From positions 1 to 40,026 of IMG/VR virus record IMGVR_UViG_3300016644_000071: a stretch of 40,026 nt of DNA. One strand, 5' to 3'. A program made the translations under genes and the position numbers. The notes beneath the pieces are model-generated. The model was not told the DNA's origin and did not search any database. It saw nothing but the letters and a program-made list of their open reading frames with translations. This document shows, piece by piece, positions 31,187-31,711 of this stretch (position 1 is the first letter of the stretch; the number at the start of each line of letters is the position of its first letter). The DNA comes from a virus.

Positions 31187-31711
31187 TTAGCCCTCCTTTT
31201 TATTGTCTATCATATTATAAGCTATTTTTAATAGTCTATTATCTGTTTTATCTAAAGCTTGTAATAATAGTGCTTTTTCTTTTAAATAAATTTTAGCAAA
31301 CCTTGGATCATGTATAGCTATTGATGATGTATTACTAATCATGTCGCAAATTTTTATATTTTGCACTTCCTCACAGGTTTTTGCTAACCTCTCACGTGAT
31401 AATCGTTTTCTTTCAGCTCTGTTTCCAGTTTCCAAATCAGATAAAGCAACTACATAATCTTTTACAACAAAACCAAATTCATTTTCTAACTCTTCTTCTG
31501 TTGTATCAGTATCTTCTAATGTATCATGTAGCCACGCAGCTGCTATTACTGATGGGTCGCTATGCACAGTTGATACCAAAGCTGCAACTTCTGCTAAATG
31601 TTTCCAATATGGCTCATTTGTGTATTTTCTACGTTGGTTTTTATGTTTATCCATTGCAAAACACATAGCCTTATAACATAAGGCATCTTTTATTGCTTCA
31701 ATAATGTTCAT
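31187..31711 (-). CDS. HD-domain protein, RelA/SpoT-hydrolase-like (small alarmone hydrolase-like), 174 aa
   Basis: YWKHLAEVA, AAWLHDTLEDT (HD) and a distal KICDMISN helix parallel the layout of the 4925-5608 protein and of Mesh1/SAH-type hydrolases. Confidence 0.7.
   Translation of the reverse strand: MNIIEAIKDALCYKAMCFAMDKHKNQRRKYTNEPYWKHLAEVAALVSTVHSDPSVIAAAWLHDTLEDTDTTEEELENEFGFVVKDYVVALSDLETGNRAERKRLSRERLAKTCEEVQNIKICDMISNTSSIAIHDPRFAKIYLKEKALLLQALDKTDNRLLKIAYNMIDNKKEG

Follow-up and report, generated by a model that had tools for sequence, protein, structure and literature searches.

Two predicted RelA/SpoT-type hydrolases, one PaSpo-like and one in a rickSpo-MFS cassette, probably acquired separately by a 40-kb phage

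Small alarmone hydrolases (SAHs) are encoded by phages, and they have been proposed to let incoming phages bypass alarmone-mediated defence (Jimmy 2020, PMC7229694). In Escherichia coli, PaSpo of Salmonella phage SSU5 (gp SSU5_099) and PbcSpo of phage PVP-SE1 neutralise all tested toxic small alarmone synthetase (toxSAS) toxins, those neutralised by PaSpo including tRNA-pyrophosphorylating ones (PMC7229694). In other work, PaSpo served to detoxify CapRelSJ46 (PMC9712102), and the stringent response can be a barrier to phage infection (PMC13483052). A further type of single hydrolase domain, rickSpo[H], occurs in Rickettsiales and Candidatus Amoebophilus, where it has proliferated with transposable elements (Atkinson 2011, PMC3153485). 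The rickSpo group represents long RelA/SpoT homologues (RSHs) with secondary domain loss (Jimmy 2020, PMC7229694), and in Rickettsia felis seven spoT genes adjoin genes for proline/betaine transporters from the major facilitator superfamily (MFS) (Ogata 2005, PMC1166351). Here, the IMG/VR virus record IMGVR_UViG_3300016644_000071 was analysed over its 40,026 nucleotides, referred to as the window, which encodes a 174-aa hydrolase (positions 31187-31711, minus strand, ATG start) and a 227-aa hydrolase (4925-5608, plus strand, ATG start). Both have intact catalytic residues, and we regard it as probable that they were acquired separately, the former as a PaSpo-like phage SAH and the latter as part of a host-lineage rickSpo-MFS cassette.

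Like SSU5 PaSpo, the 174-aa protein is a stand-alone phage hydrolase without an adjacent synthetase, sharing the catalytic residues and a C-terminal motif. Unlike PaSpo, it comprises 174 instead of 213 residues and is known here from its sequence, and its context is a 40-kb podovirus-like phage, presumably of an obligate intracellular alphaproteobacterium, in place of a 103-kb enterobacterial phage-plasmid. The 227-aa protein resembles rickSpo[H] of Rickettsiales and Candidatus Amoebophilus as well as R. felis spoT in being a single hydrolase domain, apparently derived from a long RSH, of a multi-copy, mobile-element-linked type with an MFS neighbour; unlike the copies in Rickettsiales and Amoebophilus, the pair in the window sits on a phage genome. 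Earlier publications cover phage SAHs and the counter-defence role proposed for them, as well as the proliferation of rickSpo and the spoT-MFS adjacency. New are the combination of a PaSpo-like and a rickSpo hydrolase in one 40-kb phage, the rickSpo-MFS cassette on a phage genome, and the quantification of the convergent, overlapping rickSpo/MFS pair as universal among the copies examined. Phage SAHs are widespread, but what they do during real infections is so far hypothetical; the genome offers a compact case with a typical phage hydrolase plus a host-lineage cassette. It also turns a 20-year-old puzzle, the multiplication of spoT fragments beside MFS genes in Rickettsiales, into a small, mobile and testable unit. 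If the two enzymes differ in substrate or timing, they would illustrate the way in which alarmone signalling is dealt with by a phage whose host is obligately intracellular, a setting in which the stringent response is little known.

Domain searches assigned both proteins to the RelA/SpoT hydrolase domain HD_4 (PF13328), with 58.5 bits (8.5e-16) for the 174-aa and 71.3 bits (9.5e-20) for the 227-aa protein at a Pfam gathering cutoff of 27.2 bits, while the generic HD model of Pfam was matched weakly by both, far below the HD_4 scores. TIGR00691 (spoT_relA) was matched in its N-terminal, hydrolase portion at 3e-20 and 4e-37, respectively, and phrog_990 by both proteins (E = 4e-38 for the 174-aa protein). 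All PDB sequence matches of either protein were RSH hydrolases, the nearest being Drosophila and human Mesh1 for the 174-aa protein (E 1.8e-15 and 6e-15) and the hydrolase domains of long Rel/SpoT enzymes for the 227-aa protein (E 5e-24).

The catalytic and metal-binding residues (Arg / His / His-Asp / Glu-Asp / Asp / Asn) of both proteins align with those of Mesh1 and Rel. They are R28, H38, H62, D63, E66, D67, D123 and N127 in the 174-aa protein, invariant in an alignment with 36 of its relatives (family A1), and R47, H56, H80, D81, E84, D85, D142 and N146 in the 227-aa protein, invariant in the corresponding alignment of 33 relatives (family A2). We take the RelSeq counterparts of the flanking Arg, the Glu-Asp pair and the Asn to be R44, E81, D82 and N148. 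The remaining RelSeq positions, H53, H77, D78 and D144, are those examined by Ogata 2005 (PMC1166351). The set is complete in both enzymes with no residue lost, and both are predicted from sequence to be Mn2+-dependent 3'-pyrophosphohydrolases, which should act on alarmone-type nucleotides.

An earlier, sequence-only reading of the window, here called the original prediction, had described two strongly divergent, hydrolase-only RelA/SpoT homologues at these positions, placed in separate transcription units. Coordinates, domain scores and the lack of a synthetase agree with that description; pairwise identity is 31% over 127 residues, the proteins fall into separate RSH subfamilies, and the genes lie on opposite strands, ~25 kb apart. 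Its labels of a "middle cassette" and a "moron island" proved imprecise, although the separate locations hold; both genes lie in accessory blocks that sibling genomes lack.

Position 1-22 of the window recurs at 40005-40026 as a 22-bp direct repeat, and because of this terminal repeat the window is read as a circular assembly of ~40.0 kb. It is a whole phage genome, neither a fragment nor a prophage with host flanks. Across structural and recombination genes it shares 85-90% nucleotide identity with the Megaira polyxenophila phage MAnkyphage_25.80 (OP381185), a circular genome of 38.4 kb, whose host is characterised in a review mention (PMC10925606) as a Rickettsiaceae endosymbiont with an obligate intracellular life in a cryptomonad. 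The phage is podovirus-like, and its host is probably Candidatus Megaira or a close Rickettsiaceae relative.

HD_4 and HD were the sole domain matches of the two hydrolases, with no synthetase, TGS or ACT domain among them, and both proteins are too short to accommodate a synthetase domain. When all six-frame open reading frames (ORFs) of the circularised genome were searched with a hidden Markov model built from 58 long-RSH synthetase domains, no such domain was revealed (best match 3.5 bits, E 0.78), and precomputed Pfam annotations likewise showed none. In a type IV toxin-antitoxin system, the toxSAS FaRel is paired with the SAH antitoxin ATfaRel, which is of the same enzyme class as the two hydrolases and is able to undo what a toxic synthetase produces; unlike ATfaRel, neither hydrolase in the window has a synthetase or toxin gene beside it or elsewhere on the genome. 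Since a synthetase gene is neither adjacent nor present on the genome, neither hydrolase is part of a toxSAS toxin-antitoxin module. An antitoxin role of the FaRel/ATfaRel kind was rejected for both, the neighbours being tiny ORFs in one case and the MFS gene in the other.

For the 174-aa protein, an AF2 model (pLDDT 93.8) superimposed on human MESH1 over the full length with a TM score of 0.89 and an rmsd of 1.6 Å, and all 47 PDB fold matches at E <= 0.001 were RSH hydrolases. Metazoan MESH1 (3NR1, 5VXA) is the nearest solved structure and has the same metal-binding and catalytic residues; unlike it, however, the 174-aa protein (29% identity) falls into a separate tree clade and has a different C-terminal motif. 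With SSU5 PaSpo it shares 38% identity over 146 residues, including the C-terminal motif NTSSI..DP.F..YL.EK. A neighbour-joining tree (164 columns, 100 bootstraps, few references and none for PbcSpo) united it with family A1, SSU5 PaSpo and the copy of Xanthomonas phage XacN1 in a clade with 93% bootstrap, leaving Mesh1, long RSHs and rickSpo outside. The hydrolase gene of PVP-SE1, sought as the PbcSpo reference, did not occur within the first 50 kb of that phage's record. From this tree and the one C-terminal motif, the 174-aa protein is probably a PaSpo-like, phage-borne SAH. The family has >1,000 members at 50-62% identity; most of them come from Proteobacteria and stand alone, with a length of 160-170 aa. 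Using tblastn, relatives were found in 181 deposited phage genomes (among them Agrobacterium/Rhizobium phages, Sashaviruses, SSU5 and jumbo phages), and at least 537 viral contigs of IMG/VR carry relatives as well; because of these occurrences, the 174-aa protein counts as a very common type of phage accessory gene.

The exact 174-aa protein was recovered from 17 metagenomic contigs, in every case upstream of the terminase in a MAnkyphage-like context. In ten contigs examined, from different samples, the gene was identical over 525/525 nt despite differing flanking genes. In the window it lies in an accessory block of 1.43 kb (30905-32331, minus strand) between a DUF5681 gene and the terminase gene. 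The block is a clean indel relative to the sibling contigs L023 and L024, which lack it although their terminase is 99-100% identical to that of the window. The gene itself was found neither at any of the 32 IMG/VR terminase loci of the phage group nor in MAnkyphage_25.80. It is therefore an accessory rather than a core gene, given the indel, its absence from these terminase loci and the identical copies with differing flanks, and to judge from these sequences it looks like a cassette exchanged very recently within the phage population. Four small ORFs accompany it, encoding 74 aa (31930-32154), 57 aa (31708-31881, overlapping the start of the 174-aa gene by 4 nt), 63 aa (30995-31186) and 46 aa (30854-30994, partly within the block). 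None of these four products had a Pfam match, and two gave weak PHROG matches, to a transcriptional repressor and to a family of unknown function.

Profile comparison of family A2 placed the 227-aa protein elsewhere in the RSH family, the best match being SpoT/Rel HD domains (3.4e-35 over residues 28-205) with Mesh1 at ~1e-16. In the tree described above, it belongs to the rickSpo family, a clade of 100% bootstrap that is sister to the HD domains of long RSHs. In the domain, PDB and profile comparisons, and for the 174-aa protein also in the fold comparison, neither hydrolase clustered with dNTPases or with nucleotidases of the YfbR type; with the catalytic residues retained as well, the refuting conditions attached to the original prediction do not hold. 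Relatives at 63-93% identity were found on Megaira-type metagenomic contigs and as a plasmid protein of Megaira polyxenophila. Among plasmid-borne copies, those of Megaira are 61-75% and those of Rickettsia 41-50% identical; copies occur in nine plasmid records of Megaira and in seven of Rickettsia, several of these records having them at two or three places. Upon scanning 185,579 species genomes, the nearest proteins came from metagenome-assembled genomes (MAGs) of Rickettsiaceae/Rickettsiales (71-72%), followed by a Rickettsia endosymbiont (49%) and by Amoebophilaceae and Bacteroidota (43%). This distribution matches the one published for rickSpo[H] (PMC3153485), and profile and tree agree with an origin from long RSHs, so that the 227-aa protein is most probably a rickSpo-type, SpoT-derived hydrolase domain devoid of a synthetase. 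In 50,697 deposited phage records, no rickSpo-type match exceeded 40% identity; in IMG/VR, 12 viral contigs carry a rickSpo-type gene paired with an MFS gene.

Convergent to the 227-aa gene, a 427-aa MFS transporter is encoded at 5556-6839 on the minus strand, annotated as a ProP-like metabolite/H+ symporter. It matched Sugar_tr and MFS_1 of Pfam, and its matches to TIGR00883 (4e-47) and ProP (7e-27) both stayed under the curated cutoffs. The 3' ends of the two genes overlap by 53 nt (5556-5608). A convergent MFS homologue follows the rickSpo gene in all 32 copies examined, comprising the window, nine metagenomic loci, ten genome loci and 12 IMG/VR loci. In 18 of the 20 loci measured, the two genes overlap from stop to stop by 4-131 nt, down to a hydrolase identity of 42%. 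Besides Rickettsiales, the overlapping pair is present in copies from Amoebophilaceae, Bacteroidota and Gammaproteobacteria MAGs. This strict linkage, together with the overlapping ends, suggests a joint function of rickSpo and MFS transporter in host physiology.

The pair occupies a cargo site at 4753-7014, downstream of the lysis genes, where homology to OP381185 stops at 4752 and restarts at 7015. At the same site, MAnkyphage_25.80 carries other cargo (OP381185 23336-24900), where a toxin-antitoxin pair of the RelE/ParE-CopG kind accompanies a GepA-like DUF4065 gene. Exchangeable cargo has a hot spot here. In related elements the rickSpo-MFS cassette is found at another site, adjoining a CCDC90-like gene. 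An IS1595 transposase lies near one cassette copy, and recombination genes are also nearby in related elements. Compared with contigs L019-L022, the MFS gene is 99% and the HD gene 84% identical, a difference that is a sign of recombination within the cassette. The identical cassette was found in the same phage from two other samples. A search for flanking repeats that would mark a transposon-like insertion yielded short matches at chance level only. Judged by these sequence comparisons, the cassette behaves like a mobile element's cargo that belongs to the host lineage and was captured by the phage.

Two related elements with the cassette, L015 and L016, encode a Tad2-like protein (PF11195) at 979-1218, between the RecT and YqaJ genes. 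We take the PF11195 family to include an anti-Thoeris protein. These Megaira-associated elements may thus carry bona fide anti-defence genes.

As regards substrates, timing and phage benefit, we infer the following. The 174-aa enzyme would most likely cleave off the 3'-pyrophosphate group of (p)ppGpp and of (p)ppApp; 3'-pyrophosphorylated tRNA may be a further substrate. Lowered alarmone levels would keep the infected, nutrient-limited intracellular host out of a stringent, growth-arrested state; as a possible additional role, abortive infection that relies on alarmones or a toxSAS would be weakened by this activity too. The rickSpo-MFS cassette would have arrived as a fixed two-gene unit, its likely source being the host pool of plasmids and mobile elements, and would have been inserted in the manner of a moron downstream of the lysis genes, a position that often holds morons. 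Its target is most likely the physiology of the host, where the uptake of metabolites would be combined with a lowered (p)ppGpp level, and it is probably not dedicated to anti-defence.

Several points weigh against this explanation. The placement with PaSpo was derived from a neighbour-joining tree with few references, none of them PbcSpo, and from one motif. Promoter scans for both hydrolase genes gave counts not exceeding the shuffled expectation, with terminator scans giving a like result, and transcription units were therefore deduced from strand and spacing alone; promoter-like hexamers upstream of the rickSpo gene (TTAATA-17-TATAAT, 4861-4889, plus strand, 35 nt before the start) matched at 10 of 12 positions, a weak hint. 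For another phage hydrolase, substrate preference was not reliably predictable (2025 paper, PMC12846349), and rickRel-type synthetases are known only for Rickettsia (PMC1166351, PMC3153485). Finally, the rickSpo-MFS pair, noticed in 2005, may be a neutral passenger.

This last point can be extended to a possible, though in our assessment unlikely, reading in which the cassette is a neutral or selfish passenger from host plasmids or mobile elements that brings the phage no benefit, the 174-aa hydrolase being the functional one of the two. The proliferation of rickSpo genes with transposable elements (PMC3153485), the differing cassette sites in related elements, the unequal identities of MFS and HD gene to L019-L022 as a sign of recombination, and the IS1595 transposase near one copy are all in keeping with a passenger. 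Yet both genes are intact and the catalytic residues of the hydrolase are invariant, and the finding of the identical cassette in two other samples and of the pair on 12 viral contigs of IMG/VR suggests retention. Somewhat less probable still is the view of the original prediction, which had both hydrolases as dedicated counter-defence genes against toxSAS-based abortive infection or the stringent response, directed at different signals, for example (p)ppGpp by one enzyme and (p)ppApp or pyrophosphorylated tRNA by the other, or at two stages. Both active sites are indeed intact, the enzymes represent different RSH subfamilies at 31% identity, neutralisation of toxSAS toxins by hydrolases of phages has been shown in E. 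coli (PMC7229694), and the rickSpo site of MAnkyphage_25.80 holds cargo of the toxin-antitoxin type. Two RSH hydrolases in one phage are also rare, with matches at two places in one of the 181 matching phage records (the 385-kb phage XacN1) and a second copy within 3 kb at none of 80 IMG/VR hydrolase loci; this rarity would be accounted for by the capture of a host-lineage cassette in the present phage. For the 174-aa gene, which clusters with SSU5 PaSpo, anti-alarmone counter-defence is plausible and has been proposed before for phage hydrolases (PMC7229694). It finds no support for the 227-aa gene, a rickSpo paralogue of a standard multi-copy type on plasmids and chromosomes of Megaira and Rickettsia, which was inseparable from its MFS gene in 32/32 copies. 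The convergent partner had gone unnoticed in the original prediction, and cargo captured from the host mobilome fits the 227-aa gene better than an anti-defence role. Nor is a toxSAS or alarmone-based defence on record for Megaira. Moreover, characterised SAHs and RelSeq are described as broadly promiscuous towards (p)ppGpp and (p)ppApp (PMC7644958), so that two enzymes need not imply two substrates.

The identity of the substrate gives rise to a further reading, which we consider improbable, namely that the 174-aa enzyme acts mainly on a non-alarmone compound, either as an NADPH phosphatase like metazoan MESH1 or as a promiscuous orphan hydrolase, and so reprogrammes the cofactor pools of the host. 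The nearest solved fold, human MESH1, includes complexes with NADPH and with 3'-phosphoadenosine 5'-phosphosulfate (PAPS), and metabolic promiscuity has been described for an orphan bacterial SAH (PMC9765508). By sequence, however, the 174-aa protein groups with PaSpo and not with Mesh1, and the tested PaSpo member counters alarmone/toxSAS toxicity (PMC7229694). That the two proteins are inactive relics or belong to an unrelated HD family, such as dNTP triphosphohydrolases or YfbR-type 5'-nucleotidases, is hardly conceivable; nothing in its favour was found, although both match the generic HD model weakly. All PDB sequence and fold matches at E <= 0.001 were RSH hydrolases, the catalytic residues are invariant, and in a viral structure library 5'-nucleotidase models surfaced only at E > 0.5; the unrelated HD families were rejected, sequence and fold already refuting this reading.

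Separate acquisition of a PaSpo-like SAH and a host-lineage rickSpo-MFS cassette is thus the explanation we prefer. A bolder and rather speculative version of it, which we hold to be quite unlikely, would treat rickSpo-MFS as a mobile functional unit whose conserved convergent 3' overlap couples metabolite import and (p)ppGpp removal or makes them mutually exclusive; together with the PaSpo-type hydrolase, it would give the phage two independent ways of silencing alarmone signals and so of "waking" a host that is starved. If this were true, phages and Rickettsiales would be contending to a large extent over the control of alarmones.

As to the remainder of the genome, nearly all genes between 6999 and 39793 are on the minus strand, in a series of replication, small accessory, terminase, patatin, tail-fibre, portal, capsid and tail genes. 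The plus-strand genes (101-5608) encode an exonuclease, a Bet recombination protein, a lysozyme, a DUF1064 protein and two small lysis-type ORFs, followed by the 227-aa hydrolase. A probable lysis cassette extends over 3595-4754, with the lysozyme gene at 3595-4050, DUF1064 at 4038-4346 and then the two small ORFs. The first of these (4349-4582, 77 aa) has a hydrophobic segment at its N-terminus; the second (4512-4754, 80 aa) overlaps it in another frame and has a signal-peptide-like start ending in the lipobox-like LIGC. In sequence, the pair resembles overlapped Rz/Rz1 spanins.

A patatin-like phospholipase gene (27535-28578) lies between the terminase and tail-fibre genes, and a 101-aa ankyrin-repeat protein is encoded in the early region (33371-33676). 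Both are cargo of the eukaryote-interaction type, as in MAnkyphage_25.80. Within the tail-fibre gene (23051-27538, 1495 aa), BLAST matches at 24539-26300 were staggered against several positions of the MAnkyphage tail fibre, indicating internal tandem repeats of ~270 nt with unequal copy number in the two phages; an exact-sequence look-up of the 1495-aa protein gave no match. A 120-aa ORF at 30352-30714 matches only the C-terminal helix-turn-helix part of the DNA invertase/resolvase phrog_125 (positions 163-226 of 254). At this place MAnkyphage_25.80 encodes a full resolvase of 190 aa, and from its sequence the 120-aa ORF may be a resolvase remnant.

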